From: a virus
DNA length: 64,000 nt
IMG/VR virus record: IMGVR_UViG_3300036820_000004
Coordinates: 32,001 to 96,000 of that record
Strand: one strand, 5' to 3'
Shown one piece after another: positions 8,889-45,210 of this stretch. How positions within the stretch are numbered: the stretch's first letter is position 1; each line of letters begins with the position of its first letter. The translations under genes were made by a program, and so were the position numbers. The notes under the pieces were generated by a model that saw only the letters and a list, made by a program, of their open reading frames with translations, ran no database searches and was not told the origin of the DNA.

Positions 8889-10234
8889 CAGGGGCCTGTC
8901 CGAGAAAGCCCCGTCGTTCAGGGCGGGGATGAATCGGATGCCCTAACGCCCATCGTGTCGCTTACTCAAACCACCGAAATGTAGTAAACTTGCATTGTGA
9001 GGACGGCGCACAAGGTGCGGGCCTACCCGGCCCCCGAGCAGCAGGCGGTGCTGAACCGCACGTTCGGGTGCGTCCGCGTCGTCTGGAACCGCACCCTCGC
9101 TACCCGCCACGCCCGCTACCACGCCGAAGGCAACGGCACGTCGTACCGGGAATCCGACGCGGCACTGACCGCGATGAAGAAACTCCCCGAGGTGGAATGG
9201 CTGAACGAGGTGTCAGCGGTCCCCCTCCAGCAAACCTTGCGGCACCAGCACGCCGCGTTCCAGGCGTTCTTTCAGAAGCGCGCCCGGTACCCGCGGTTCA
9301 AGTCCCGGCGCGGGAAGCAGTCAGCTACCTACACCCGCGCGGCCTTCCGGTGGCGTGACGGGCATCTGACTCTCGCCAAGATGGACGCGCCGCTGCAGTT
9401 GGCGTGGTCGTGGCCGCACATTGACCCGGCGACACTGGACCCGTCCACGGTGACCGTGTCTCGCGACCCAGCCGGGCGGTGGTTCGCCGTCCTCCACGCC
9501 GACGTCCCGGACCCGGAACACCTGCCCGCGACCGGCCGGAACGTCGGCGTGGACCTCGGGCTCAAGGACTTCGCGGTGCTGTCCACGGGCGAGCACATCC
9601 CCCACCCGAAGCACATGGAACGCCGCGAGCGGCGGCTCAAGCGCTACCAGCGGCGGCTTGCCCGGTGCCAGCGCGGATCCGCGAACCGCGCCAAAGCAAA
9701 ACGGAAGGTCGCACGGCAGCACGCCCGGGTCGCTGATGCCCGCCGGGACTTCCTCCACAAGGCCAGCACTGATCTGGTGCGCCGCTTCGACGGCATCGCG
9801 GTCGAAGACCTGAACGTGTCCGGCATGGTCCGCAACCACTGCCTGGCCAGGTCAATCAGCCAGACCGGGTGGGCCGAGTTCCGCGCGTTCCTCGCCTACA
9901 AGGCAGAGCGGTACGGCCGGACCCTGGCTGTGGTGGACCGCTGGTACCCGTCATCGAAGACTTGCTCGGGATGCGGGCATCTGCTCGCGTCCCTTTCTCT
10001 GGGCACCCGCAAATGGGTGTGCCCAGGATGCGGCGTCCTGCACGACCGGGACGTGAACGCCGCGAAGAACATAGAGGTTGCCGCCGGGCTGGCGGCAGGT
10101 GCCGGAAACGGTGCCGATGCCTGCGGAGCGGATGTGAGACGGGCGGGGGCAACCCCGGCGCGGTCTGCTGTGAAACAGGAACCCTCGGGCGCGAGCCCGG
10201 GAATCCCCGTCCTTTAGGGCGGGGAGGATGTCAA
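8889..10234 (+). mobile_element. non-autonomous IS200/IS605-family element (tnpB only)
   Basis: Follows TCAC (8885-8888); left hairpin CCCCGTCGTTCAGGGCGGGG; right hairpin CCCCGTCCTTTAGGGCGGGG followed by TCAA at 10231-10234; no tnpA. Exact ends inferred. Confidence 0.85.
8997..10217 (+). CDS. tnpB: RNA-guided endonuclease TnpB
   Basis: N-terminal RAYP...FGCVRVVWN; RuvC VGVDLG, IAVEDL, HDRDVNAA all intact; Zn ribbon CSGC...CPGC. Confidence 0.95.
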   Translation: MRTAHKVRAYPAPEQQAVLNRTFGCVRVVWNRTLATRHARYHAEGNGTSYRESDAALTAMKKLPEVEWLNEVSAVPLQQTLRHQHAAFQAFFQKRARYPRFKSRRGKQSATYTRAAFRWRDGHLTLAKMDAPLQLAWSWPHIDPATLDPSTVTVSRDPAGRWFAVLHADVPDPEHLPATGRNVGVDLGLKDFAVLSTGEHIPHPKHMERRERRLKRYQRRLARCQRGSANRAKAKRKVARQHARVADARRDFLHKASTDLVRRFDGIAVEDLNVSGMVRNHCLARSISQTGWAEFRAFLAYKAERYGRTLAVVDRWYPSSKTCSGCGHLLASLSLGTRKWVCPGCGVLHDRDVNAAKNIEVAAGLAAGAGNGADACGADVRRAGATPARSAVKQEPSGASPGIPVL

Positions 10235-26267: not shown

Positions 26268-26288
26268 CGTTCGATGCTGGAGGTGACC

Positions 26289-29200
26289 ATGGCCTCCCCT
26301 TCGGCCATCCTCGCAGCGAGCAAATCCATGCCCGGCGGGGGCCGGCCGAACCCGGGCCCCCAGCAGCAGCAAGGCCCTTACATCGGCCGCATGTCCCCGC
26401 TGGTGCAGCAACTCAACAATGAGCATGGATATGCGAATACGTATGGCGGCTTTTTGCCGAGGCCGCCGCAGACGTTTACCGATGGCGCATTCAGCCCGTT
26501 CTCGCCGATCATGCCGGTGCCGATTGATGCGCCACCACCTGGCTTCGAGCGGCCAGAACCCCGGCGATTCGCCTACGAGGTAGGTTACAACCTTCCTATC
26601 GGCGACCCGGGCACTGAGGGCGGCTACAAGCTCGCCCCGTTCTCGGTGCTCAAGTCGCTGTCGAAGAACTACTCGATCGCGCGGCGCTGCATCCAGCTAG
26701 TGAAAAAGGAAGTCTGCGGCCTGGACTGGGACATCACCCTCACCTCCCACGCGGAGAAGGCCTACCAGGGTGACCATGAGGCGCAGCGGGACTTCGGGGA
26801 ACGGCGCGCGAAGGCGATGCGGTTTTTCCGCAAGCCGGACCCGAACTACTTCGACTTCACGTCGTGGATGTCGGCGATGCTGGAGCAGATCCTCACCATC
26901 GACGCCCTGAGCTTGTACCTGTGCCCGAAGAAGGGCACCGGGATGGGCCGGGGCCTGCTCGGCTCGGACCTGGACGGCTTGTGGTGCATCGACGGGGCGA
27001 CGATCCGGCCGCTGCTGAACCTGCACGGCGGCATGCCCGTCCCCCCCGCGCCCGCCTACCAGCAGTACGAGTACGGCGTGCCCCGCGCTGATTTCACGAC
27101 GGTGATGGCCGGCCTGGACCTGCCCGAGATCGCCGGCGGGGAACGCGGGGCTTACCGCGGCGACCAGCTGGTCTACCTGCCGATGTGCCCGTTCCCTGAC
27201 TCGCCGTACGGGTTCTCCCCGACCGAGCAGGCGCTGGTCCCGATCCTGACCGGGCTCCGCAAGCAGGGCTACCAGCTGGAGTTCTTCACCGAGGGCACCG
27301 TGCCCGCGGTTTATATTTCACCAGGCGATACATCCATGACTCCCAATCAGGTAAGGGAGCTTCAGGATGCATTGAATGCGGTCGCGAACGACCAGGCATT
27401 TCATTGGAAAGTCATTGTTTTGCCGCCTGGAAGCAAAACAATGCCACAAAAGCCTAATGATATTGTCGACCAGAGCGACGAGTGGATCGCCAACGAGGTC
27501 TGCATGATGTACGGCGTCTCCCCCATGGACGTCGGCATCCTCCCCAAGGTGTCCACCGTGGCCAGCCCGTTCGCGGCGCGGGAAATGGCGCAGGCCAGCC
27601 GCACCAACCAGGAGAAGACCGACACCACGCCGCTGCTGAAGTTCATCGCCTCGATCCCGAACTTCATCCTCCAGATCGTGTGCGACCAGCCGGACATGGA
27701 GTTCTCGTTCGAGGGCATGCGCGAGGTCCAGGACGAGGCGGCGCTGACCGACACCTACGTCAAGCAGGCGCAGATCGGTGTCCGGTCGGTCGACGAGTTC
27801 CGCGACAAGATCGGCCTGCCGCCGTGGGGCCTGGACGAGACGAGCGGCCCGCTGGTGTTCACGCCGATGGGACCGATCCCCCTGTCGGAGGCCGTGTCGA
27901 TCGCGCAGGCGCAGGCACAGGCCAAGGCACTGCCGCCCGGGTCGTCCGGCGCCAAAAAGCCCGCGGTGACCGCGAAGCCGCTGCCGTCCGGCACCGTCAC
28001 CGGGCGGCAGCGCGCCCGCGGCGGTGCCGCGCTCACCCCGGCGCACGCCGCGTCCGAAGGGTTCATGCCCGAACGGTCGGCCAAGAAGCCCTCGGCGGGC
28101 CCGGCTCACGCCCAGGCGTCAGTTAAGGCGACGCTGGCCGAACTGGAGGCCCTGACCCGGCACCTGCGCAAGGGACGCCTGATCTCCACATGGGAAGCCC
28201 GGCATCTCGAGCCCCGCGCGCTGTCGCTGATCGCCGAGCAGATGGCGAAGGGCATGGACGCCGAGCAGGCCGCGGGCCTGGTGAAGACCATCGTCCTGCC
28301 GCCCGCGTCCTACCAGTGGGCAGAGAAGGCCCGGCACGAGCAGTCCCCGCAGGCTCAGATCCAGGCGCAGCAACTGGCCCTGGAGCAGGAGTACACGCGG
28401 CGGATCGAGGCCGCGTTCGCGTCCGCTGCCGCCGCGGCGGCGAAACTCATCGCCGCGTGGGGCGCGGGCACTCTCGCCGTGACTACCGCGGTCCTCGCCG
28501 GGCTCATCGCCGCCGAGTTGCGCAAGGCGCTGACGGCAGCGCTGAGCGGCCTGTGGGCCGACGCGTGGGCGCACGGCGAAGCCGAAGCAGGCGGATCCGC
28601 TGGCGGGGCGCTGGAAGCGTTCCTCGGCACCGTCGGCCGGCAGGTGCAGGAGTGGGTCAGCGAAACCAACGTCGCCGCCATCATCGCCGACCTGCGGGAC
28701 CTGGCCGGCCTGAAACGCAAGGCCCTGATCGCCGCGCTGCTGCGACTCCTCAAGGCAGATGAGCGGGCCGAACTCATCGCTGTCACCGAGCTGATGCGCG
28801 CCTGGAACCAGGCCGTTCTCGCCGTCTGGAAGCTGCTCGGGGTCACCTATAAGGGCTGGCAGACCCGCAACGACGCCAAGGTGTGTTTCCCCGCAGGTAC
28901 GCCCGTGGCGACGCCGACTGGCGAAGTGCCGATCGAGCGGCTAAAGCCCGGGGATCTCGTCATCACGCCAGAGGGGCAGCGTCCCGTCATTGCCACCATG
29001 GAGCGCCTGTACACAGGTGGCCTTACGGTGATTCAGGCGGAAGGCCGGACGGTCACGGCGACTGACAATCACCGGTTCATGACCACCAACGGCTGGCGCA
29101 AGGCTGCCGACCTCAAGCCCGGGGACCTCCTCAAGTCGCTTGAGGACGAGTCGGCAGAGATTGGCAGCGTCGTTCACTTCTCGCTCGCCCAGCCGGATGA

Positions 29201-31529
29201 CGTGCCAGCCGAGGCGGCCAAGTTCCGCATCGCGGATGGCGTCCTTGGCCGCAGTCCGCTGGTGCCAGTACTCGCCGTCGGCCTCAATGGCGACGGCGAG
29301 ACTGGTGAGCGCGAAGTCGATCGTCCAGCGGCTCACGTCAAGTTCGGGCGTGAACTCAAGGCGCAGCAGGGTGAGCGCCTGACGGACGCGGAACTCCAGC
29401 ATGGTCTCGCCCGTAAACTTGCGGTAGCAACTGCGGGAGCAGAACTGCCGATCGGCAGCGGCAAGGCCCGGCTGCGTGCGGAAGGTGACACTGCACGTCT
29501 TGCAGGTGAGGTAGACCGGTGGCCGGCGGCATTCCTCGGAACAGAACCGCCTGTTGAGATGCTTCTCAGCCCGGAAACGCGTTCCGCAGCGGTCACAGTC
29601 GACGTACTTGGTCTCGGCAGTGGTACATGCCCGCGAGCACGTCCTGTAGCGCTCGGCGGTGGACTGGCTGACGGTGAAGTCCTTGCCGCAGACAATGCAG
29701 GTCTTCGTGACCTTGCAACTGTCCTCGTAGCACGCCCGGGAGCAGTGGATCTTGGTCTTGTTATTGAGCCTGCCGGGGCGGAAGACGATGCCGCAGCCCG
29801 GGCAAGTGCGTTCGGCGTGGACGCGCGTAGCGGTGTGATAGCACTCGTTGGAGCAGAAGACTCGGGGGCTCCGGGTGCGCTGAGCACGCACGACGATTTT
29901 GCTGCACTGGGCGCATTGGTAAGTGAATGGCACGGACAGGCTTCCCCCATTCAAGCCATTATCGTTAATCACCCGCTTACAGTTTACAATGTCAGCGTTG
30001 AAACGGAGCCCGTTTACTACGCGAGTCGCTTCCTAGTTCACAATTGCGGGGAATGCAAGGCCAACCAGGCGGCCGGCTCCATTCCCGTCGGTGCGCGTTT
30101 CCCCAGCGGCGACCTGATGCCGCCAGGACATCCGCGCTGCCGGTGTCATGCGACCGCGCCCCCGCCCGGCTGGACACCCCCGGTCACGGCCGCGAACAAG
30201 AAGCGCAAGCGGGGCGTGAACCTGGACGGCGAAGTCGTTCTGGCCGACGCCAAGCCCGGAGACGAGAACCCTGCCGGCGGAGGTGGCCGCACCCTTTACC
30301 CGCACCGCCCTGACGGAACCGAGGTACCCGGGGGTGTTCCCGGCGCGTCTGCGGGAGGGGAGCCGCCGCGCTGGGACGCCTCCACCCCGGAACGCCGCGG
30401 CTACGTCAACACCTACGGCGAGGACGACGGCGACTGGCCTGAGCATGTCCGCGAGGTCGCGCCCAGGCCGGATCAGGACTACCCGGACGGCGGCGGCGAA
30501 GACGAGGACCTGTGGCCGGAAGGCGGCCACGGCACCGCCCAGCCCCCGGTGACGTCGATCGGCGGCGGACCGCGCGGCCGGGCACCAAACGCGGTGGGCA
30601 AGGCCGCCGACGCTGCGGCACAGTTCCTGAAGGACGCGCCGAAGGCCAAGGCCAGCGCGGTGCGCAAGCTCATGCAGGAGAACTTCCCGCCGGACGCCCT
30701 CGCCTGGGTAGGTCGCGCCACATGGGTGGGCCCCGTTGAGATCCCGCTGGAACTCATGGACCTGTCCGGCCGGAAGGGGTGGGCGGCGAGCCACCAGCAG
30801 GGCCACGTCAAGGCCATCGCCCGCGACCTGAAGGCCGGCCGGAAAGTCAACGAGATCATCGGCGTGCTGCGCCCGGGTCACAACCACGTCCGCCTTGTTG
30901 ACGGCAGGCATCGCACCCTGGCCTGCGAGAAGAACAAGATGCCGGTCCGCGGCTACGTCGGGTTCCTGGACCGCGACTCCGACCTGGAAGCGGCGTATGA
31001 CACCTACCACCAGCAGCATCACTTCGGGGACAGCCCGAAGAACAAGGCCGCAGGCTACGACCTGAGCCCGCGGTCGGGCATGATCTCCCTGGACCTGCCG
31101 GAAGGCCTCATCCAGCCGGTGCCCGGCGGCGTGGACGACCACCACGTGACGGTCGCCTACCTCGGCAAGGATGTGGACGATAGGGAGCTGGATATTGTGC
31201 TGGCGCAGGCACGCACCGCGGCCCGGCATGCTCCGGGCCCGCTGGCCGGGATGCTGTCCGGCATCGGCTCATTCCCGCCGTCCGATGGCAGTGACGGCAT
31301 GGTGCCCGCGTTCGTCCCGGCCCGCATCCCCGGCGCGGAGAAGCTCCGCGCCGACCTTGAGCACCTGTCGGCCAGCGAGCACAAGGACTGGGCGCCGCAC
31401 GTCACCCTCGCCTACCTGCAGCCGGGTGAGCCGCTCCCGGCGCCGCATCCCCCGGTGCCGGTGACGTTCACCCACCTGTCAGTGCACCGGGGCGATGAGG
31501 TGTACCGGTTCCCGCTGGGTGGCGAGTGA
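26289..31529 (+). CDS. portal protein fused to MuF head-morphogenesis domain (intein-split), ParB-like domain and 2H-phosphoesterase
   Basis: RBS GGAGG; portal motifs IDGATIRP, SPYGFSP.E, F.EG.VP, DEFR..IGLPP; MuF W.T.ND.KV|C.EC...FPSG...PP.HPRCRC; LVDGRHR; HHVT...PHVT. Confidence 0.9.
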   Translation: MASPSAILAASKSMPGGGRPNPGPQQQQGPYIGRMSPLVQQLNNEHGYANTYGGFLPRPPQTFTDGAFSPFSPIMPVPIDAPPPGFERPEPRRFAYEVGYNLPIGDPGTEGGYKLAPFSVLKSLSKNYSIARRCIQLVKKEVCGLDWDITLTSHAEKAYQGDHEAQRDFGERRAKAMRFFRKPDPNYFDFTSWMSAMLEQILTIDALSLYLCPKKGTGMGRGLLGSDLDGLWCIDGATIRPLLNLHGGMPVPPAPAYQQYEYGVPRADFTTVMAGLDLPEIAGGERGAYRGDQLVYLPMCPFPDSPYGFSPTEQALVPILTGLRKQGYQLEFFTEGTVPAVYISPGDTSMTPNQVRELQDALNAVANDQAFHWKVIVLPPGSKTMPQKPNDIVDQSDEWIANEVCMMYGVSPMDVGILPKVSTVASPFAAREMAQASRTNQEKTDTTPLLKFIASIPNFILQIVCDQPDMEFSFEGMREVQDEAALTDTYVKQAQIGVRSVDEFRDKIGLPPWGLDETSGPLVFTPMGPIPLSEAVSIAQAQAQAKALPPGSSGAKKPAVTAKPLPSGTVTGRQRARGGAALTPAHAASEGFMPERSAKKPSAGPAHAQASVKATLAELEALTRHLRKGRLISTWEARHLEPRALSLIAEQMAKGMDAEQAAGLVKTIVLPPASYQWAEKARHEQSPQAQIQAQQLALEQEYTRRIEAAFASAAAAAAKLIAAWGAGTLAVTTAVLAGLIAAELRKALTAALSGLWADAWAHGEAEAGGSAGGALEAFLGTVGRQVQEWVSETNVAAIIADLRDLAGLKRKALIAALLRLLKADERAELIAVTELMRAWNQAVLAVWKLLGVTYKGWQTRNDAKVCFPAGTPVATPTGEVPIERLKPGDLVITPEGQRPVIATMERLYTGGLTVIQAEGRTVTATDNHRFMTTNGWRKAADLKPGDLLKSLEDESAEIGSVVHFSLAQPDDVPAEAAKFRIADGVLGRSPLVPVLAVGLNGDGETGEREVDRPAAHVKFGRELKAQQGERLTDAELQHGLARKLAVATAGAELPIGSGKARLRAEGDTARLAGEVDRWPAAFLGTEPPVEMLLSPETRSAAVTVDVLGLGSGTCPRARPVALGGGLADGEVLAADNAGLRDLATVLVARPGAVDLGLVIEPAGAEDDAAARASAFGVDARSGVIALVGAEDSGAPGALSTHDDFAALGALVSEWHGQASPIQAIIVNHPLTVYNVSVETEPVYYASRFLVHNCGECKANQAAGSIPVGARFPSGDLMPPGHPRCRCHATAPPPGWTPPVTAANKKRKRGVNLDGEVVLADAKPGDENPAGGGGRTLYPHRPDGTEVPGGVPGASAGGEPPRWDASTPERRGYVNTYGEDDGDWPEHVREVAPRPDQDYPDGGGEDEDLWPEGGHGTAQPPVTSIGGGPRGRAPNAVGKAADAAAQFLKDAPKAKASAVRKLMQENFPPDALAWVGRATWVGPVEIPLELMDLSGRKGWAASHQQGHVKAIARDLKAGRKVNEIIGVLRPGHNHVRLVDGRHRTLACEKNKMPVRGYVGFLDRDSDLEAAYDTYHQQHHFGDSPKNKAAGYDLSPRSGMISLDLPEGLIQPVPGGVDDHHVTVAYLGKDVDDRELDIVLAQARTAARHAPGPLAGMLSGIGSFPPSDGSDGMVPAFVPARIPGAEKLRADLEHLSASEHKDWAPHVTLAYLQPGEPLPAPHPPVPVTFTHLSVHRGDEVYRFPLGGE
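28884..30044 (+). mobile_element. intein (387 aa) in MuF Zn motif, no in-frame endonuclease
   Basis: Starts CFPAGTPV; block B TATDNHRF; GW..A.DL.PGD; block F VYNVSVE; ends LVHN|C. Confidence 0.9.
28941..29933 (-). CDS. Zn-finger-repeat DUF559/Vsr-like endonuclease, antisense inside the intein
   Basis: Five CxxC...CSxxC units, then E...IDF...VAIEADGEYWH...D..RD..L...GW.VIR; SD-like GGGGGAAG 7 nt before GTG 29933. Confidence 0.85.
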   Translation of the reverse strand: MPFTYQCAQCSKIVVRAQRTRSPRVFCSNECYHTATRVHAERTCPGCGIVFRPGRLNNKTKIHCSRACYEDSCKVTKTCIVCGKDFTVSQSTAERYRTCSRACTTAETKYVDCDRCGTRFRAEKHLNRRFCSEECRRPPVYLTCKTCSVTFRTQPGLAAADRQFCSRSCYRKFTGETMLEFRVRQALTLLRLEFTPELDVSRWTIDFALTSLAVAIEADGEYWHQRTAAKDAIRDAELGRLGWHVIRLGEREVNDAANLCRLVLKRLEEVPGLEVGSLAPAVGGHEPVIVSRRDRPAFRLNHRKATCVQALHGGNDGTLPLWRDDEIPGL

Positions 31530-34453: not shown

Positions 34454-37400
34454 GTGGCCGCTGCAGTCCTGACCGAGCCCGAGGCCGCGAAGGCTGCGAC
34501 CACGTCTGCCGGTGATGACCTCGTCTACTTCTCGATGCCCATCGAGAAGTCGGAGGACACCAAGACCGTCAATCCCGTGGACGGCACCCCCGACATAGAA
34601 ATCTTCGGGAAAGTGACCGACGGGACTGTTGACTCGGATCTTCAGGTGGTCGATCCCGAGGCCAGCCTGCGGTGGATCAAGCGCTGGAAGGACGACGGCA
34701 AAGCCAACGTCCGGATGCAGCATGATCCGAAGAAGCCGGTCGGCAAAGGCCTGCACGTCGATGGCCACAACGTCCGTGCCCTGATCGCTGACCCGATCGC
34801 GAAGCACTTCATCCGCACGGGCATCCTCAACGACTGGTCCATCGGGATCATGAACCCGGACATCCGCCGGGGCGATCCCGCATTCAAGCACCTGGACCCG
34901 GCGGGCAAGGCCATCAACGGCGTGATCACCGACCGGGCGGACGGGCTCACCGGACTGGGTGAGATCAGCGTTGTCGACCGCGGGTCGAATTACGGCACCA
35001 AGTTCTCCCTGTGCAAGGCAGCGGCCGATGGCTCGGTGGAGTGGACCGGCGAGCTGACCGCGCCAGACGAGGTGCTGGCCAAGGCCGCGGCCCCGGCGAA
35101 GCCCAAGACGGTGACGGTCGAACTGCCGGCCGACATGCACGTCAGCATCAAGCCGTCCCAGCTGGCCAGGCTTGCCACGTTCGGGCAGCAGCTGGCGCGC
35201 GAGCAGGCGGCAGCGAAGGGCGCCGTGCCGTCGGTGATCACCAAGACGGCGGAACCGGATGCGGCCAAGGCTGACAATGCTGCACCCGAACCGGTTCCCG
35301 GCGCCCTGCATGACGCTGTGCTGAACCGCGCCGCGGAGGCAGCGGTTTACAAGCGCGACATCGACACCGCGACCCGCAGCCGTCTCGCCAGCGAGGGCAA
35401 GGCGCTGAGCGACGGCTCATACCCGATCGAAACCGAATCGGACATGCACAATGCCTACACCCTCGCCCGGTCCAAGCACGGGAAGTGGAAGGCCGCGCTC
35501 AAGCTCATCGCCCGCCGCGCGAAGCAGGAGGGCTGGACGCCTCCGGGTAAGCAGGACAAGGTCGCGGCCAAGGGCGCCAAGCCGCAGGTCACCAAGTGCA
35601 TGAAGTGCGACGGCTCCGGGATGACAGACGGCAAGCCCTGCCCGGACTGCAAGAAAGGCAAGAAGGCACTCAAGGCGCAGAAGCGCACGATCCGCAAGGC
35701 GCTCCGCCACCTGGACGATTTCGCCTCCGTGGTCAACGGCCAGCCGGCGACCAAGAAGGCCAAGGTCCTGTGCGGCGGCTGCGGGGCCAAGCAGAGCCGC
35801 AAGCATCAGATGTGCACCGAATGCGGCAAGCCCATGGCCGGGGCCATGCCGGTCACCAAGAACCACGACTTCCGGTGCCTGGGCTGCGGCCACGACCCGC
35901 TCGACAAGGGCGAGAAGCACTGCCCGCAGTGCGGCAAGGAAAACCCCGGCTACAACCCGATGGCCGACCACAAAATCCCCATGAACGCGGGCAAGGCAGC
36001 CGCTAAGGAGCGTGTGAGCAAGCGGAAGAAGGCCAAGAGCGGCAAGGGCAAGAAGGGGAACCCGTTCGGGGACAAGCAGGCTCCTCCCTTCGGCGCCAAA
36101 GACGACAGCGGCGAGGACGGCGGGAAAAAGCCATCCAGGGCCAAGAAGGCCGCGAGCCCGCAGGCCGCCAAGCGCAAGGGAAAGGGCAAGGGCCGCAACC
36201 CGGCGCACGGTGTCACCGGCCACGGCGGCGACGTCAAGGGCCTGCCCGCTCACCGCGAACCGGACGGCGCGCCGGTCGAGGAGTTCGAGGACGACGCGAA
36301 CATGCAGGACGGCGACGAACGGCAGGAAATGGCCGCGGCGATGCGCCACAAAGCCCTCGGGGCCGCGGGCCTGTCCCGCGAGGACGCGCTCCTGCACGAC
36401 CTGACCTGCGCCGCGTTCCGCCCGGCGGACGTGCGCAAATGCTTCCCCTACGCCTCCCTCGGCGACATCGACGGCGCCATGTGGCAGCGGCAGGCCCTGA
36501 TGAAGGCCGCGGCCGCCCCGGCAGCGGAAGCGCTCGCGATGCGGGACCTGTTCCGCCACGCCGAAACCCTCAAGAACGCATCGGATGACCTGCTGCTAGA
36601 CCTGCGTGAGCAGGCCCACGCGGACTTCCTCGCGGTCAACAAGGTGCTGACTGACGCCACCCCGGGCCCGGCGTCGTTCCCGACCCCGGCGCATGTCACC
36701 CCGCAGCAGTATCAGCGGCCGTACATTCACGAGGGCCATTCGGCGCCGTCACCGCAGCAGGGCGCCCCGCACGACTTCCGCGTTCCCGAAGGCCAGCCGT
36801 CGGCGGAGGACTTCACCCGCGGATTCCTCGCCGATGGCCGCGCCGCGGACGCCCCGGCCAACGACACCCCCCGGCATGAGCCCATTCCGGCACCGATGAC
36901 CCCCGGCATGCCGTCCCGCGTTTATTACACCGGGGCGATGCGGGACAACGCCCGCCAGGCGATGACCGCCATGCACGACCACATCTCCCGCGTTTTCCCC
37001 GACGTGTGCCCCATGTCCCCGGAGGTCAGCGGCATTCAGAAGCCCGCACCGCAGGTCCCCGAAGGCGTCGGCGGCCCGGCACCGAGGAGCGGCAAGAAGG
37101 CCGCGAAGGCGAAGGCCCGCAAGCAGCGCAAAGCCCTGGCCGCCAAGCGCCGCCGTCTCGAGCAGCGCGTCCTGAAGGGATCGATGACCGTGAAGCAGGC
37201 ACGCCGCAAGCTCGGCCTCAAGGCCAAGGGCGCCAACCTCACAGCGATGAAGCTGGCCAAGGCGTTGCCTTCTCCTTCGGTGCCGGTTCCTTCTCCGCTG
37301 GATCCGGACGTCATCAAGGCGGCCATCGCCGAGGCCAACGCGCCGCTCCTCGAGCGCATCGCCGCCCAGGACAAGACCCTGCGCAAGCAGCGGAAGGCCA

Positions 37401-37648
37401 TCGACGCCATCGCCGACCACGCCGACACCTCCCAGGCCCCCCTCCGCGGGGTGGTCTCCCTCAACAAGGCTTCTGCGGCGCCGGCGGCGCCGCAGACCGC
37501 TACGGCATCCGCGGAGCGGGTGCAGATGGCGGAACTCCAGCGACTCCACTACGTGTCGCGCTCCAGCCCGGACCCGGGCATGCGGGAAGCAGCCCGCCGG
37601 GACCTCGAAACCAAGCTCGGACTGGACTCCATGACCCCTCAGACGTAA
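34454..37648 (+). CDS. HK97-type prohead protease with long multi-domain / scaffold extension
   Basis: VRMQH, WSIG and EISVVDRGSN protease motifs; then ALSDGSYPI domain, three Zn ribbons, Lys-rich linkers and coiled-coil end; directly upstream of the capsid gene. Confidence 0.85.
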   Translation: MAAAVLTEPEAAKAATTSAGDDLVYFSMPIEKSEDTKTVNPVDGTPDIEIFGKVTDGTVDSDLQVVDPEASLRWIKRWKDDGKANVRMQHDPKKPVGKGLHVDGHNVRALIADPIAKHFIRTGILNDWSIGIMNPDIRRGDPAFKHLDPAGKAINGVITDRADGLTGLGEISVVDRGSNYGTKFSLCKAAADGSVEWTGELTAPDEVLAKAAAPAKPKTVTVELPADMHVSIKPSQLARLATFGQQLAREQAAAKGAVPSVITKTAEPDAAKADNAAPEPVPGALHDAVLNRAAEAAVYKRDIDTATRSRLASEGKALSDGSYPIETESDMHNAYTLARSKHGKWKAALKLIARRAKQEGWTPPGKQDKVAAKGAKPQVTKCMKCDGSGMTDGKPCPDCKKGKKALKAQKRTIRKALRHLDDFASVVNGQPATKKAKVLCGGCGAKQSRKHQMCTECGKPMAGAMPVTKNHDFRCLGCGHDPLDKGEKHCPQCGKENPGYNPMADHKIPMNAGKAAAKERVSKRKKAKSGKGKKGNPFGDKQAPPFGAKDDSGEDGGKKPSRAKKAASPQAAKRKGKGKGRNPAHGVTGHGGDVKGLPAHREPDGAPVEEFEDDANMQDGDERQEMAAAMRHKALGAAGLSREDALLHDLTCAAFRPADVRKCFPYASLGDIDGAMWQRQALMKAAAAPAAEALAMRDLFRHAETLKNASDDLLLDLREQAHADFLAVNKVLTDATPGPASFPTPAHVTPQQYQRPYIHEGHSAPSPQQGAPHDFRVPEGQPSAEDFTRGFLADGRAADAPANDTPRHEPIPAPMTPGMPSRVYYTGAMRDNARQAMTAMHDHISRVFPDVCPMSPEVSGIQKPAPQVPEGVGGPAPRSGKKAAKAKARKQRKALAAKRRRLEQRVLKGSMTVKQARRKLGLKAKGANLTAMKLAKALPSPSVPVPSPLDPDVIKAAIAEANAPLLERIAAQDKTLRKQRKAIDAIADHADTSQAPLRGVVSLNKASAAPAAPQTATASAERVQMAELQRLHYVSRSSPDPGMREAARRDLETKLGLDSMTPQT

Positions 37649-37696: not shown

Positions 37697-40444
37697 GTGA
37701 CAGCAGTTCTGGACGGCACCATCCCGTCCCTGAATGACGGCGTGACCGCGCCGCCGCCCGACCAGGTCACCAAGGCGCTCTACGGAGAAGCCGCACGGCC
37801 CGACCTGGGCACCAGCCAGTACTCGAACACCGCCGAAGCCCTCGTCGGCAAGATGAGCCACCTCGTCAAGGGCGCCGGCTTCGCCGGCGAGGGCGGCAAC
37901 ACGCCGCTGACCAACCAGGCCGACATCGGCCGCCGCGCGTTCGAGGCGACGATCGACCTGCGTTCCGCCACCCGCCAGGGCATCTACGCCAAGTCGACGG
38001 TGGTCAAGTCCATGTCCCAGGATTTCCTGGGCCGGTTCGGCGCGCTGCGCCTGGCCCTGGAAACCCCGTCCATCCAGGAGTTCATCGGCACCGTCGCCAG
38101 CCCGGACATCGCCCGGTCATTCACGGCCGGAAATTTGGGGATAGGGTCGACGTACGGTTTGACCCCTTTCAACCTGTTGGCTCCCTCCCGCCTTAACTAG
38201 ATGGGGCCGTCGCGCCGTGAGGCGCGGATGACAACTCCGCGAACTGCTGGAACACCCGAGCCACCTGCGTGCGCCACAACGTGAGGCGAAAGCCTGAGCG
38301 TGACGGCCGAAAAGCTACGCAGCAGGGGCAATCAGCAGCCAAGCCCGCCTGCCGTCGGCGACGGGAAGGTCCAGAGAGCATGCACGGAGCGCCTCCCTGA
38401 GGCGATGATGTGCTCCGAGCCTGCGTGAGAGCGCAGGAGGCGACCGGAAACGAGCCGCCCCTCTGTTGAAACGGACAGAGAGTAACAATTTACGCATCTA
38501 TCCCATCTATACCGTCAACTAGGCGGCTCCGGAGGGCGACCTCCGGATGACAAGCGCACTGCCCGGGGAACCCCGCCCGTATACTGACCTGAAGCCGTCG
38601 CTCGCGCCCTCCTCATACAGGGGTACGATCGGCGGTTTGCTGTGTCTGGGGAATCCCGGTCCGCGGCGATGCCCGCCGCGGTGTAGAGACTGTACGTGCG
38701 CGCTCTGCCACGGACGCGGCCACGGGGCATTACGTGGCCACGGCCGCAGAGCATGAGACAGTCCGGACCTGCGTGGATGGCAAACCGCAGGAGGCGCACG
38801 GAAACGATGCGCCCGCTCGCCTCTTCGGCGAGAGGTAACAGAATCGCTACCGCAACAAGTTCGCCCGGCCGCCCGGCCAGGGCGCGTCCCTGATCGAGCG
38901 TCTCGCGGTCGGCATCTCCGGTTCACAGACCGGCGGCCAGTCCGTGCTGGACTTCTCGATCCCTGAGATGGTGCAAACCGGCGGGTCGTTCGGCCAGTGG
39001 CCGCTCAACCTGCCCCCGGCCGTCAGCGAGCAGTTTGTGACACTGAACGTGCCGTATCGTTTCTTCGGCGTCACGGAGCAGCTCAGCTTCCTCGCCCAGT
39101 GGGCAGGGCAGGGGTTCGAGGATCTGTCCGCGCTCGCCAACCTGATCCTTCTGCAGGCCGCCATGCAAGCGGAGGAGTTCCAGCTGATCGCGGGATCGTC
39201 GGCGAACCTGGCCATCCCGGCCGCGCCAACGTGCACGGTCCGCAACGCCCAGTCCAACGAGACCGCGCTGTCCACTTCGGTCGTCAACGTCCAGGTGGCT
39301 GCGGCGAACTACTTCGGCCGCACGGCTTCCAGCGGGTCCACGTCGGTGACGGTGGGCGCGGGCCAGGTCGTGGACGTGACCATCTCGCCTGTGACCGGGG
39401 CGATGAACTACCAGATCTTCGGCCTTTCCTCGGTCCCGACCACGTACCTGCTCGCGACCTGCGGGGGCGTGAAGTACACGCTGCAGGGCGCGCTGCCCGC
39501 GGCGGTCACCACCAACCCGACGGCTGACACCGGCACCGGGGCCGGAACCCGGATGGAAGGCGTCATCCCGACCCTGACCGGCCTGTCGGCGCAGGCGGCC
39601 ATCTACCCGAACGGCAACCCGATCGTCTGGCAGGGCGGCTACGTCAACCAGAACGTCGGCCAGCACCTCAACTACAACGTCATCTACACCGCGCTGAAGG
39701 CGCTGTTCGACTCGCCGTCGATCTCGCCGGGGGCGTTCAAGGCCGACCCGGCGGAGATCATCTCCTCGGGTTCGGACATCGCGAACCTGTCCCAGGATGT
39801 GATCTCGCAGGGTTCGGGCACCAACTTCGAGCTGTTCATCAAGCAGGGCGAAGTCGGGAACGTCACCGTCGGTGCGGCCGTCAGCCAGTTCCAGAACCCG
39901 GTCACGAGGTCCATCCTGAAGACCGTGGTCCACCCGTTCTACCTGCAAGGCAACGCGGAACTGCTGTCCTACCAGCTCCCCCAGAGCTGGACGAACGTGG
40001 CCAACGCGTGGGAAGTGTCCTGCGTGCAGGACTATGTGACGCTCAACTAACTAGGGCGCGCGGCAGGGTGACCTGCCGTGGAAAACGGCACTGTTCGGGG
40101 AACCCCTCCAATCACCGGGGAATCCCGAGCTTCAGCGATGCCCGCTGGAGTGTAGAGACTGTACGTGCCGGATCTGTGCGACGGGATCAGCGACGGGGCA
40201 TTACGCCGCTGGCACCGCAGATCATGAGACAGGCCGATCTGCACCGATGGAAAAGGTGCAGAGGCCGGCAGAAATGACCGGCCCGCTCACCATCTGGTGA
40301 GAGGTAACAGAATGCGCACTCCCCGTGATCGATGTGACCTACAGGTACATCCTCCTGCTCATGGCTGCCCTGGTGGCCCATGCTCCGATGTATTCTGCCC
40401 ACCTGGGCGGTTTGCAGCAGTCTGATGTGACTCCGTACAGTTAG
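37697..40444 (+). CDS. major capsid protein, spliced: join(37697..38193,38495..38515,38847..40043,40315..40444), 614 aa
   Basis: Joined exons total 1845 nt in one open frame: ...FNLLAPSRL-IYPIYTV-YRNKFARPPGQG...QDYVTL-ALPVIDVTYRY...SDVTPYS*; position after the protease. Confidence 0.85.
38194..38494 (+). ncRNA. group I intron 1 (301 nt, no ORF)
   Basis: Exon ends in U, intron ends in G; P1 GCCU/GGGC; P10 UAGAUG/CAUCUA; P3 CUCCG/CGGAG; P AACUGCUGGAA, Q AAUCAGCAG; P7 GAGCAU/GUGCUC. Confidence 0.9.
38516..38846 (+). ncRNA. group I intron 2 (331 nt, no ORF)
   Basis: P1 CCGU/GCGG; P10 UAG/CUA; P3 GCGCAC/GUGCGC; Q AAUCCCGG; R GUAGAGACUGUAC, S AUGAGACAGUCC; terminal G. Confidence 0.9.
40044..40314 (+). 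ncRNA. group I intron 3 (271 nt, no ORF)
   Basis: P1 CGCU/GGCG; P3 CGGCAC/GUGCCG; P UUCGGGGAA, Q AAUCCCGAG; R GUAGAGACUGUAC, S AUGAGACAGGCC; 3' end GUAACAGAAUG as in intron 2; P10 weak. Confidence 0.85.
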
Positions 40445-40548: not shown

Positions 40549-40917
40549 GTGAGCGGAATCTTCGCGGCCGGAATCCAGCAGGTTCAGTCCAGCATCGGCA
40601 CGACCTCGGCGCTGGTCTGGAACCCTGAGAACACCAGTGCCACCACGTTCGGCCCGCTGGGCTCCGTCCCGGCCACCGCGGTCCTCAAGGACGTGACCAT
40701 CCTCAACACCGGCACCGTGACCGTGTACATCGGGTCCGGGTCGCTTACCGCGGGCGGGTCGCAGACCCCGCTGGCCATCCCGGTCGGCGGCCAGGTCACC
40801 GTCCAGGGCTACTCGGTGTCCAGCCCGTCTGGTGCTACCGGGCAGATCTGGGGCAACACGTCCTCAGGCACCGGTTCCACGCTGGCCGGGCTGGTGTCTG
40901 TCGCGAGCGTGATCTGA
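40549..40917 (+). CDS. putative capsid decoration protein
   Basis: RBS GAAAGGA; small, Gly/Ser/Thr/Val-rich; follows the capsid gene. Confidence 0.65.
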   Translation: MSGIFAAGIQQVQSSIGTTSALVWNPENTSATTFGPLGSVPATAVLKDVTILNTGTVTVYIGSGSLTAGGSQTPLAIPVGGQVTVQGYSVSSPSGATGQIWGNTSSGTGSTLAGLVSVASVI

Positions 40918-41621: not shown

Positions 41622-42347
41622 GTGACCACCCTCACCAACTCGTTCGAGGGCGGCACCAGCGGCACAACCATCACCCCCGGCAATTCCGGCGGGGTGTCAG
41701 GGAACGCGTTCGACGTCGTTAACATCGGCGCATCGGCCGCACTCGCCTACAGCAACACCCAGGCCGCGCATGGCACGCTGTCAGGCGAGTTCACCGAACC
41801 CGGGACCAGCACAACGTGCTTTGCGGCCTGGGCCGGGAGCCTGACCGGGTCCTCGCTGGCCACCATCTGGTACCGCGCCTACGTTTACCTGCCGGCGCTG
41901 CCCCCGGTCACCAACATGAGGCTCATCGCCCCCTACGACAGCACCTCGATCTGCGCCGGGATCGCGGTCAGCACCGCAGGCAAGATCGTGGTCCAGGCCG
42001 GGACCACGGACACGACGCAGTACACGAGCACCAGTGCGGTCAACACCGCCGGGTGGTTCCGGCTGGAGGGTTTCGTCACCGGGTCGGCCAGCGCGGGCCA
42101 GGTGTCGATGGCGTTGTACAACTCGCCGGACTCCGCGACGGCCACCGAGACCTTCACCTCGGCCGCCAGCCTGAACACGACCGGCGCGATCACCAGCGTC
42201 CGGTTCGGCTCCTCGGCGCAAGGCACGAATTACTCCTGGTTCATGGATGATCTCGGCGCTTCCAGCACCGGTCCGGTTGGTCCCGTTGTCAGCCCTGCCG
42301 CCGGCGGCGGCAGCAGCATCGTCCCTGTTCTCGTCGCGAGCATGTGA
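41622..42347 (+). CDS. virion beta-sandwich protein (paralog of 61064-61777)
   Basis: TTLTNSFEGGTSGTTIT...YRAY.YL...WFRLEG...DD.G.S..GP.GP. Confidence 0.75.
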   Translation: MTTLTNSFEGGTSGTTITPGNSGGVSGNAFDVVNIGASAALAYSNTQAAHGTLSGEFTEPGTSTTCFAAWAGSLTGSSLATIWYRAYVYLPALPPVTNMRLIAPYDSTSICAGIAVSTAGKIVVQAGTTDTTQYTSTSAVNTAGWFRLEGFVTGSASAGQVSMALYNSPDSATATETFTSAASLNTTGAITSVRFGSSAQGTNYSWFMDDLGASSTGPVGPVVSPAAGGGSSIVPVLVASM

Positions 42348-42360
42348 AAGGGAGGCGCCT

Positions 42361-43497
42361 GTGCGGATCCTGGTTTACTCAAACGCGCCGTGGGCCTGGT
42401 CGGGGTACGGCACGCAGACCGCGCAGCTGGTTCCGCGGCTGGCCGCCGCCGGTCATGAGGCGGCGGTGGCCGCGTTCCACGGCTTGCAGGCCGCGCCGCT
42501 GAACTGGCAGGGGTTCATGGTGTACCCGGGCAGCGGCGAGGACCCGTGGGCGCAGGATGTGCTGCAAGGCCACTACGCCCACCACCAGGCGGACCTGCTC
42601 CTCACCCTCATGGACGCGTGGGTGCTGAACCCGGCCCTGCTCGCCGGCATGAATGTGGCCCACTGGATGCCGGTCGACTGTTCTCCGCTATCGGCGATGG
42701 ACAAGCATGTCCTCACCGAGGGCGGCGGCAGGCCCGTCGCGATGAGCGGTTTCGGCCGCCGCCAGCTGGAAGACGCCGGCTGGGCACCGCTGTATGTTCC
42801 GCACGCGATCGACACGCAAGCCATGTTCACCCCGCTCCCGGACCGGGATGCTCTGCGCAGCGAGCTCGGCCTGGCCGGCCAGTTCCTGGTCGGCATCAAC
42901 GGCGCCAACCAGGACCCGGTCAGGAAAGGCCTAGCCGAGCAGTTTGAGGCGTTCGCCGCGTTTCGCTCCGCGCACCCGGAAGCGCTGCTGCTGGTCAACG
43001 CACGGTGCGAAACCCGGCAAGGTATCAGCCTGACCGCCCTGGCCGCCGCGCACGGCCTCGGCCCGGACAGCGTCCAGTTCGCTGACCAGTACCTGTACTC
43101 GGCGGGGCTGTTCGGACAGGACAAACTCGCTCGCTGGTACGGCTTGCTGGACGTGCTGTCGAACTGTTCCTTCGGTGAGGGGTTCGGCTTGCCCGTCCTC
43201 GAGGCACAGGCATGCGGGACACCGGTCGTGGTCACGGACTTTTCCGCGATGACCGAGCTGTGCGGCTCCGGGTGGCTTGTGGAGGGCAGCCGGTTCTGGA
43301 ACAAGGGCCACTCCGCGTGGTGGCTGCGGCCGTCGGCAGCGGCCATCGCCGGCGCGTACGAGGAAGCGTTCGCGTTGTGGCAGGCCGGGGGCCTGGGTGC
43401 CTACCGGGAGAAAGCGCGGCAGTTCTCGCTGGCCTATGACGCTGACCGCGTGCTCGCCGAGTACTGGGTTCCCGCACTGGCTGAACTCGCCGGCTAA
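42361..43497 (+). CDS. GT4-type (GT-B) glycosyltransferase
   Basis: RBS GGGAGG; SNAPW..SGYG.Q, RKG, EGFGLPVLEAQACGTPV. Confidence 0.9.
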   Translation: MRILVYSNAPWAWSGYGTQTAQLVPRLAAAGHEAAVAAFHGLQAAPLNWQGFMVYPGSGEDPWAQDVLQGHYAHHQADLLLTLMDAWVLNPALLAGMNVAHWMPVDCSPLSAMDKHVLTEGGGRPVAMSGFGRRQLEDAGWAPLYVPHAIDTQAMFTPLPDRDALRSELGLAGQFLVGINGANQDPVRKGLAEQFEAFAAFRSAHPEALLLVNARCETRQGISLTALAAAHGLGPDSVQFADQYLYSAGLFGQDKLARWYGLLDVLSNCSFGEGFGLPVLEAQACGTPVVVTDFSAMTELCGSGWLVEGSRFWNKGHSAWWLRPSAAAIAGAYEEAFALWQAGGLGAYREKARQFSLAYDADRVLAEYWVPALAELAG

Positions 43498-44103: not shown

Positions 44104-45210
44104 ATGGCTCCCTACTTTAGGGCTGGCTATGGCGCTCAGACGGCCATGCTAGCGCCCCGGCTGGCAGCAGCCGGCTACGAGGTAGCGATCTCCGCGTTCG
44201 CCGGGCTGCAGGGCGCTGCGACCACGTGGAACGGTCACACCGTCTACCCGGGCGGTCTTGACCCCTACGGCGGTGACGTCCTCCCGGCCCACGCGGCCCG
44301 GTTCGGCGCCGACCTCGTCCTCACCCTCATGGACGCGTGGGTGCTGAACCCGGCCATTGTCAACGGCCTGAACGCGGCGTGCTGGATGCCTGTCGACTGC
44401 ACGCCCCTGTCGGCGATGGACCGCGGGTTCCTGCGCAACTCCGGGGCCCGGCCCATCGCGATGAGCGAGCACGGGCGCGCCGAACTCGAAGCCGCCGGGT
44501 GGGCTGCTCTGTACGCGCCGCACGCGGTGGACACGCAGGCGTTCGCCCCGCAGGACAAGACCGCGGCGAGGAAGGTCATGGGCGTCCCGGCGGACGCCTG
44601 GGTGATCGGAGTCAACGCAGCCAACCTGGACGCGGTCCGCAAAGGCTTCCCGGAGCAGATGGCCGCGTTCGCCGCGTTCCGCAAGGACCATCCCGAGGCG
44701 ATCCTCCTGCTGCACACTCATCCCGCCGGCCCCGGTTCCGGATGCGATCTGCGGGACCTGGCCGGCCGGCTGGGCATCGGCGACGCGATCCGCTGGTCCG
44801 ATCCTTACCGGTACACCTGCGGCGGGTTCAGCACGGCGGACATGGCCCGCTGGTATGCCTGCCTGGACCTGTACTCCGGGTGCGCGTACGCCGAAGGATT
44901 CGGCCTGCCGCTCCTCGAAGCCGCAGCGTGCGGTGTCCCGTCGGTGACCACGTCATTCTCGGCGATGCCGCAAGCCGCCGGGCCGCACGCCTACCTGGCC
45001 GCAACCGAGCCGTTCTGGAACGCCCGGCACCGGGCCTGGTGGGGCAAGCCGCTGGTCGCTGACATCGCCGCAGCCTACGAGCAGGCATTCAAGGACGAAC
45101 ACGACAGCGACGCGATCCGTGCCCACGCCCTGGCCTACGACGCGGACGCGGTGTTCGCGGAGCACTGGCTGCCCGTCCTGGCGGTCCTGGCGGAAGGAGG
45201 TGCCTGTTGA
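44104..45210 (+). CDS. GT4-type glycosyltransferase paralog with disrupted 5' end
   Basis: Closely similar to the 42361 gene (LTLMDAWVLNP, WMPVDC, EGFGLPLLEA); RILVHSNAPW lies upstream in another frame. Confidence 0.8.
   Translation: MAPYFRAGYGAQTAMLAPRLAAAGYEVAISAFAGLQGAATTWNGHTVYPGGLDPYGGDVLPAHAARFGADLVLTLMDAWVLNPAIVNGLNAACWMPVDCTPLSAMDRGFLRNSGARPIAMSEHGRAELEAAGWAALYAPHAVDTQAFAPQDKTAARKVMGVPADAWVIGVNAANLDAVRKGFPEQMAAFAAFRKDHPEAILLLHTHPAGPGSGCDLRDLAGRLGIGDAIRWSDPYRYTCGGFSTADMARWYACLDLYSGCAYAEGFGLPLLEAAACGVPSVTTSFSAMPQAAGPHAYLAATEPFWNARHRAWWGKPLVADIAAAYEQAFKDEHDSDAIRAHALAYDADAVFAEHWLPVLAVLAEGGAC

Follow-up and report, generated by a model that had tools for sequence, protein, structure and literature searches.

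Three putative group I introns and a 21-nucleotide exon in a predicted HK97-fold capsid gene of an uncultured phage

Introns in the structural genes of high-GC phages have been followed experimentally in Cluster J mycobacteriophages, in which Pope et al. (2013) reported, from reverse transcription PCR, that the BAKA and LittleE introns are spliced; for LittleE, N-terminal sequencing of the protein through the junction gave the same result (PMC3706429). In their account both introns are 'most likely' group I; the BAKA/Optimus intron is a 265-bp element with no open reading frame (ORF) in a minor-tail gene, and the LittleE intron lies in the major capsid gene, has a LAGLIDADG-like ORF on the bottom strand and is described as 'efficiently spliced' (PMC3706429). 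A capsid-gene group I intron of Tuc2009 is cited in the same paper (PMC3706429). Here we analyse a 64,000-nucleotide (nt) stretch of viral DNA (hereafter the window; bases 32001-96000 of the 119,753-bp record IMGVR_UViG_3300036820_000004), in which a predicted major capsid gene at 37697-40444 is interrupted by three putative group I introns, two of them separated by an exon of only 21 nt. The record is a metagenome-derived contig that is classed as linear, with a completeness estimated at about 91%.

Phage genes with several introns provide a second point of comparison. The orf142 gene of Staphylococcus phage Twort reportedly contains three group I introns, said to be of subgroup IA2, and exon skipping is reported in the title of the work attributed to Landthaler and Shub (1999). 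It shares with the window the three group I introns in one phage protein gene, and the question of exon skipping, but belongs to a phage of a low-GC host and is a different gene. Essential genes with two or three group I introns have been described in Bastillevirinae (PMC11878797) and in Jug and crAss-like phages (PMC12880540), the latter report including phage genomes with dozens of introns. The split genes named there (DNA polymerase, terL and nrdD) are fragmented by gene callers, their introns are associated with several homing-endonuclease families, and their splicing was shown by long reads or metatranscriptomes (PMC11878797, PMC12880540). In the portions of these two reports used here, the split genes serve replication and packaging rather than the capsid, and the hosts are Bacillus and Bacteroides. 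The major capsid gene of Faustovirus E12 has 13 exons of 13-527 bp and five group I introns (PMC6247863). Like the gene in the window, it is a capsid gene with several group I introns and very short exons; by that account, however, it comes from a eukaryotic giant virus with a double-jelly-roll capsid, some of its introns have homing endonucleases, and the introns form a mixed population that includes spliceosome-like ones and averages 1.3 kb in length.

Four exons form one capsid frame

The ORF listing for 37697-40444 on the (+) strand gives three separate frames of 167, 368 and 39 amino acids. Removal of the three insertions (Table 1) joins the four remaining segments into 1,845 nt, which encode 614 amino acids without an internal stop. 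Every insertion has G as its last base, lies between an exon T on its 5' side and an exon C on its 3' side, and interrupts its codon in phase 2; each starts with (T/C)AAC followed in frame by TAG or TAA, which places a stop two codons into the intron. No endonuclease ORF was found in the three introns, and the ORF listing contains no ORF beyond chance in their 271-331 nt. No target-site duplication was seen at the three insertions, and their excision is exact. An earlier reading of this DNA, made from the letters alone (hereafter the sequence-only reading), had proposed the insertion coordinates, the exon U and final G, the 614-amino-acid frame and the 21-nt second exon, and all of these hold to the base.

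A search with exon 3 identified 988 relatives among the candidates scored, many of them uninterrupted and 600-625 amino acids in length. When six uninterrupted homologs were placed on the window with tblastn, the four exons were covered with no residue lost; colinearity of homologous capsids across the predicted junctions, set beforehand as a test, was thus observed with all six. For P0005 (capsid homolog proteins are numbered P00xx), which serves as the uninterrupted reference and supplies the residue numbering for insertion sites, residues 1-166 fall on 37697-38194, 167-173 on 38496-38516, 174-572 on 38848-40044 and 573-614 on 40316-40441. The peptide of exon 2, IYPIYTV, matches both P0005 and P0007 at 100% (tblastn). 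Overall, the spliced product is identical to P0005 at 554 of 614 residues, with two gap columns, neither at a junction, and the nine residues around each of the three junctions are identical.

Table 1. Positions of exons, putative introns, computed pairings and upstream genes in the window, and insertion sites across the capsid family (P0005 residue numbering)
Feature	Position	Strand	Description	Basis
Exon 1	37697-38193	+	GTG start, 165 codons plus 2 nt	tblastn with P0005 residues 1-166, 84% identity
Intron 1	38194-38494	+	301 nt, ORF-less, putative group I 'type 1', longer P5 region	
Intron 1 P1	38204-38207	+	GGGC with GCCU (exon 1); 4 bp, U.G at splice site	computed pairing
Intron 1 P10	38198-38203 with 38495-38500	+	UAGAUG with CAUCUA; 6 bp	computed pairing
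Intron 1 P7	38376-38380 with 38411-38415	+	GAGCA with UGCUC	Rfam alignment; columns covary among type 1
Exon 2 (micro-exon)	38495-38515	+	21 nt; completes Leu166, encodes IYPIYT, starts Val173	
Intron 2	38516-38846	+	331 nt, ORF-less, putative group I 'type 2', enlarged P5 region	
Intron 2 P1	38523-38526	+	GCGG with CCGU (exon 2); 4 bp, U.G at splice site	computed pairing
Intron 2 P10	38520-38522	+	UAG with CUA (exon 3); 3 bp	computed pairing
Intron 2 P7	38688-38692 with 38759-38763	+	GACUG with CAGUC	type 2 alignment columns 170-174/245-249
Exon 3	38847-40043	+	1197 nt, residues 173-572	tblastn with P0005, 91.8%; phrog_13692
Intron 3	40044-40314	+	271 nt, ORF-less, putative group I 'type 2'	
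Intron 3 P1	40055-40058	+	GGCG with CGCU (exon 3); 4 bp, U.G; P10 1 bp	computed pairing
Intron 3 P7	40157-40161 with 40230-40234	+	GACUG with CAGGC	
Exon 4	40315-40444	+	130 nt including TAG stop, residues 572-614	tblastn with P0012 residues 582-623 and P0027 residues 574-615 onto 40316-40441
Portal gene	26274-31529	+	1751-aa frame upstream of capsid gene	
1064-aa ORF	34454-37648	+	directly upstream of capsid gene	no Pfam or PHROG match
Insertion site	residue 163/164		L031, L044, L051	nucleotide level
Insertion site	residue 166		window, L065	nucleotide level
Insertion site	residue 170		L064	nucleotide level
Insertion site	residue 173		window, L044, L051, L052, L057	nucleotide level
Insertion site	residue 570		L064	nucleotide level
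Insertion site	residue 572		window, L054-56	nucleotide level
Insertion site	residue 583		L064, L065, L070	nucleotide level

Conserved group I structure

Sequence comparison shows RNA structure of group I topology in all three insertions, with the P3/P7 pseudoknot among its elements. Two sequence types are represented, type 1 by intron 1 and type 2 by introns 2 and 3. In an alignment of ten type 2 copies from the window and eight other loci, RNAalifold found compensatory changes at 44 of 67 pairs. We also wrote a full type 2 structure, comprising P2, P3, P4, P5, P6, P7 (the pseudoknot), P8, P9, P9.1 and P9.2; the helix names are our own assignment, from helix order and the Rfam alignment of intron 1. 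Across the ten sequences, 92.3% of the cells of this structure are paired, compared with 32-42% when the partner strand is slid, and 50 of the 74 pairs show compensatory changes (13-20 in the slid controls; none of 500 shuffles was as high). Intron 2 forms 73 of the 74 pairs and intron 3 forms 68. Within P7, the first position is a G-C pair in all ten sequences, which by analogy may correspond to the guanosine-binding pair, and the locus L064 carries a fully exchanged helix, GAGCA/UGCUC in place of GACUG/CAGUC. The covariation of P7 between introns 1 and 2 to which the sequence-only reading had pointed is confirmed (GAGCA/UGCUC versus GACUG/CAGUC).

From nine type 2 copies we built a covariance model of 235 positions, R1, and searched 536 kb of sequence made up of the window, 66 related viral capsid loci (numbered L0xx), BAKA and LittleE. 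All 72 matches lie on the strand of the capsid gene. In this search intron 3 scored 258 bits (E = 1.2e-83), intron 2 221.9 bits (1.2e-71) and intron 1 51.6 bits (4.4e-15); R1 matches exactly these three places in the window, and no others in the whole 119.7-kb record. Intron 1 aligns end to end with four type 1 relatives from other capsid genes, with compensatory changes at 42 of 78 predicted pairs and a covarying P7. These four pass the Rfam group I threshold (56.2-65.7 bits), and types 1 and 2 are linked because R1 matches the same four sequences as well.

R1 also matches the experimentally spliced introns over the full length of the model, the BAKA tail intron with 119.3 bits and the LittleE capsid intron with 103.4 bits. 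Nucleotides 195-241 of intron 3 are 87.5-88% identical to the BAKA/Optimus and LittleE introns over 42-47 nt. When BAKA is aligned end to end under the structure, which was derived without it, 27 of 27 pairs in P2, P3, P7 and P9.1 form, and its P7 carries a compensatory version of its own, GACUA/UAGUC. The mycobacteriophage introns thus resemble those of the window in belonging to the same RNA family, in the U before the intron and the G at its end, and in residing in virion structural genes of high-GC phages of about 110-120 kb. They differ in that BAKA and LittleE have one intron per gene, whereas the capsid gene of the window has three and a 21-nt exon, and in that their splicing is proven, whereas that of the window is predicted from sequence. 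The kinship detected concerns the introns: no capsid homology to Cluster J was detected, a tblastn search of 50,697 phage records with exon 3 matching only THSA-485A, and blastn of intron 1 against the same records gave no match. The sequence-only reading had called this a high-GC actinobacterial phage. The high GC stands, at 67.8% for the window; an actinobacterial host is only plausible, given intron homologs in mycobacteriophages and portal homologs (the nearest 25-29% identical) from mixed hosts.

Splice-site pairings and the 21-nucleotide exon

Computed P1 and P10 pairings are listed in Table 1; they include the U.G-ended P1 of all three introns and the 6-bp P10 of intron 1 that the sequence-only reading had described. 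The last intron base is G in each case (38494, 38846 and 40314), as it is in 10 of 10 aligned relatives, BAKA among them. Within exon 2, bases 1-6 would be taken by the P10 of intron 1 and bases 18-21 by the P1 of intron 2. The two sets do not overlap, and the two ribozymes would therefore not compete for the same bases. Introns 1 and 2 also differ in core sequence and in guide sequences.

Exon 2 encodes part of the most conserved motif of the capsid family, in which the columns are invariant, and its length is a multiple of three, so that the reading frame would be kept if it were skipped. Tandem Tetrahymena introns placed around a 24-nt exon in Escherichia coli are reported to yield both inclusion and skipping of that exon, and skipping in the engineered constructs is reported to be suppressed if the cores and splice-site recognition elements differ (PMC10136302). 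A few word searches of the open-access literature found no natural tiny exon between two phage group I introns, which is not proof of absence; a published 'mini-exon' concerns group II introns and was set aside as a precedent. An exon of a single base is reported for placozoan cox1.

Other micro-exons occur in the family, of 29 nt in L044, 29 nt in L051 and 45 nt in L064, the 21 nt of the window being the shortest of the four. The idea that a micro-exon always lies between two different intron types was ruled out by L064, in which the 45-nt exon is flanked by two type 2 introns.

Capsid protein and its genomic context

Structure modelling assigns the 614-amino-acid product to the HK97-fold major capsid proteins. 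A profile search yielded 807 representatives, from which 68 diverse full-length members were taken for the fold alignment. With this alignment, AlphaFold2 modelled P0005 at a pLDDT (predicted local distance difference test) of 80.1 and a pTM (predicted template modelling score) of 0.70. Foldseek found 90 matches to the model at E <= 0.001 (best E 2e-10), and its top matches are the phage capsids of Pa223, SPO1, SU10, phiXacJX1, D3, HK97 and T5, plus encapsulins. A fold computed beforehand from 44 close homologs reached a pLDDT of only 45.8 and was discarded. Sequence-based searches provided little: Pfam had no match for the exons or P0005, PHROGs returned only phrog_13692 ('unknown function'), and two PDB sequence-profile searches for the capsid protein gave nothing meaningful. 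Weak agreement comes from an ESM Atlas lead, in which SU10_MCP is found on 15% of one cluster, and from Pfam SU10_MCP in 3 of the 68 relatives (best E 0.0011). Residues 1 to about 160 of P0005 are low-confidence helices in the model, and we suspect a scaffolding or delta domain in this part of the capsid protein.

The capsid gene is present in a single copy in the 119,753-bp record, in which no second capsid gene was found, and a portal gene lies upstream. The identification of the gene as the major capsid gene by the sequence-only reading is thus borne out by fold, neighbourhood and copy number. The large ORF directly upstream may be, judged from its position, a candidate protease/scaffold fusion.

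Hint/intein-splicing matches are also present in the portal frame, at about residues 870-1257, as is a 2'-5' RNA ligase-like domain at its C terminus; an intein and the capsid introns thus occur together in the head module. Residues about 300-426 of the capsid protein, as represented by intact homologs in tblastn, are 29-30% identical to a small ORF at 40549-40917 (+) (E 0.004-0.011), and the beta-rich insertion domain of the capsid and this ORF may share an Ig-like or decoration domain. Two group-1 glycosyltransferase genes, at 42247-43497 and 44104-45210 (+), follow shortly downstream of the capsid gene and could glycosylate virion proteins. The only above-threshold Rfam match in the window is to Sernc389, a family of Saccharopolyspora antisense small RNAs (9184-9778 (-), 83.1 bits); with 70% GC and high bias, it may be a conserved coding region and not a small RNA.

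Introns across the capsid family

Among the 66 capsid loci, the gene is uninterrupted in 37, truncated by a contig end in 3 and split by at least one insertion of more than 100 nt in 26. The insertions form two size classes, of 214-390 nt and of 0.8-1.6 kb, and L064 and L065 have four introns each. Ten ORFs were scanned from the long class, and every one is endonuclease-like: eight have DUF559 together with helix-turn-helix or NUMOD3 motifs, and two have LAGLIDADG. The endonucleases of this family are thus mostly DUF559/Vsr-like, in contrast to the LAGLIDADG-like ORF of LittleE; as in LittleE, the two LAGLIDADG ORFs (in L058 and L064) lie on the opposite strand. The sequence-only reading had considered three introns in a capsid gene unusual, which proved overstated, given the published LittleE intron, the 26 of 66 loci with insertions and the up to four introns per gene.

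Seven insertion sites were resolved at the nucleotide level (Table 1); those near residues 148, 158, 242 and 269-282 were placed from tblastn ends, with an accuracy of a few residues. Sites 158-173 cluster in the invariant motif LAPSRLIYPVYT. The junction of the last intron of L057 does not fit the U/G rule. Introns are found at the same sites in phages with capsids that have diverged to 55-65% identity, and the exons are open.

The ends of many database 'proteins' of the family fall near profile positions 163-168, 274-282 and 564, as would be expected if gene callers break at introns. Database fragments range from 368 to about 445 amino acids, with many shorter ones that end at intron sites. 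Together with the three frames listed in the window, these fragments corroborate the earlier statement that ORF callers fragment the capsid gene.

Introns of a single lineage are found at two capsid sites (572 and 583) that lie 11 codons from each other and share the sequence UCCAU/C (L064:5336-5968; L065:5640-5935; L070:3931-4225); L064 has introns at both 570 and 583, with its 45-nt exon between them. The shared UCCAU/C suggests site-hopping led by a short guide sequence. In relatives of intron 3 (L054:5477-5520, L065:5640-5690, L068 and L070), the segment that separates the 5' splice site from the guide contains an additional small hairpin, CAGUUC...GAACUG, which intron 3 of the window lacks. 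Strong R1 matches also lie upstream of the first capsid exon detected by tblastn in L068 (1454-1683) and L032 (1-442 and 1138-1306), where there are probably further introns and undetected short exons.

Splicing model and alternatives

We consider it very likely that a single HK97-fold capsid gene is transcribed late with three ORF-less group I introns, the splicing of which would restore the 614-amino-acid frame. The gene anatomy, the colinearity with intact homologs, the conserved structure, the homology to spliced introns and the fold are observations, and they carry this reading. Removal would proceed by the standard two-step transesterification initiated by guanosine, with the 5' splice site chosen through the short P1 helix that ends in U.G and with G as the last intron base; intron 1 would additionally align the 3' exon by its 6-bp P10. 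At the in-frame stop two codons into each intron, ribosomes on unspliced RNA would be released before they reach the ribozyme core. Work on the T4 td intron reportedly indicates that an early in-frame stop aids splicing by halting ribosomes. The lineage would have spread over many sites of the capsid family and into genes of Cluster J mycobacteriophages. The introns of the window are probably immobile alone, or moved by enzymes supplied in trans, because they lack endonuclease genes whereas relatives carry them.

Several points weigh against this reading. We infer from sequence and homology that splicing takes place in this phage, that no protein is required for it, and what the stop codons and P10 contribute. 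At 4 bp, each P1 helix is short enough to arise easily by chance and is unconvincing alone, and P10 falls from 6 bp in intron 1 to 3 bp in intron 2 and a single pair in intron 3. The P7 of intron 3 has an A.G mismatch at its second pair, next to the invariant G-C, which could weaken guanosine binding. The alignment of 61 distinct R1 matches, in which 94.9% of cells are paired and 56 of 60 pairs are compensatory, was fitted to R1 and is hence biased towards its structure, and the fold was made on P0005, a proxy about 90% identical, rather than on the spliced product of the window itself. Finally, the public group I model, Rfam RF00028, aligns with intron 1 over its full length at only 23.7 bits, below the gathering score of 50, and has no match for introns 2 and 3, even for intron 3 searched alone. 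The covariance-model search that the sequence-only reading had proposed thus gave a divided answer, negative or sub-threshold for the window and positive for the four type 1 relatives. The same model scores the experimentally spliced introns of BAKA and LittleE at 28.6 and 30.7 bits, both sub-threshold; functional introns of this lineage thus normally score low with Rfam, and we do not regard such a score as disqualifying.

An alternative, which we regard as unlikely, is that the insertions are group I introns, not all of which splice well or alone, such that proteins are needed or mixed products arise. Protein help, from host or phage, may be required by intron 3, with its P7 mismatch and 1-bp P10, or by the two introns that flank the micro-exon; the short P1 and P10 helices point the same way. 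Skipping of exon 2 would delete seven residues in frame, with the Tetrahymena constructs and the title of the Twort paper as precedents. Yet the residues that skipping would remove belong to the most conserved motif of the family, and introns 1 and 2 differ in core and guides, as did the engineered introns in which skipping was suppressed. The mismatch of intron 3, moreover, is retained at the same site in L054-56, where the exons are intact, and the capsid intron of LittleE is, in the words of its describers, efficiently spliced.

A more far-reaching proposal, which we hold to be quite improbable, is that ORF-less introns hop among capsid sites by reverse splicing at 4-5-nt matches and that the choice of introns could tune or gate capsid production. 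Neighbouring introns would then create the micro-exons of 21-45 nt, and skipping of exon 2 would give an in-frame capsid variant that lacks seven invariant residues. Such gating would act late in infection, or in co-infection with intron-less relatives.

It is very improbable that the gene has been inactivated by the insertions, as degenerate remnants of introns or as mobile DNA of another kind, such that the record would be a defective phage or the gene a pseudogene. The introns are without endonuclease genes and the record is a linear, incomplete metagenomic contig, as that explanation would have it, but the exons have no stop or frameshift and are about 90% identical to an intact homolog, nearly all structure pairs of introns 2 and 3 are preserved and the record offers no second capsid gene. 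Same-site introns persist beside open exons in capsids diverged to 55-65% identity. Insertion as DNA transposons does not predict the sense orientation of 72 of 72 R1 matches, and mobile DNA more generally is at odds with the exact excision and the lack of a visible target-site duplication. Ribosomal bypassing at translation, or assembly artefacts, would account for little more than the restored frame and are extremely improbable, given 271-331 nt with conserved, covarying ribozyme structure, homologous insertions that recur in 26 independent contigs and homologs that are reported to be removed at the RNA level (PMC3706429).

Significance

Capsid-gene group I introns (LittleE and Tuc2009), three-intron phage genes and a multi-intron capsid gene of a giant virus are already in print. 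The novelty lies in an HK97 capsid gene that combines three introns with a 21-nt exon, in the extent of the intron population of an unnamed capsid family and in the kinship of these introns with those of Cluster J. That kinship ties introns of uncultured soil phages to the only experimentally verified introns of actinobacteriophages.

Recognition of the introns restores one 614-amino-acid HK97-fold capsid protein from what appear to be separate frames, and explains the fragments found across hundreds of metagenomic relatives. Across the family, genes contain 0-4 introns at about ten sites of insertion, the endonucleases are of two families and the micro-exons measure 21, 29, 29 and 45 nt; this makes it a small set of natural variants in which to study the avoidance of exon skipping by tandem ribozymes and the movement of introns from site to site. 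In the phage described here, three splicing events catalysed by RNA should be required to make the most abundant virion protein.

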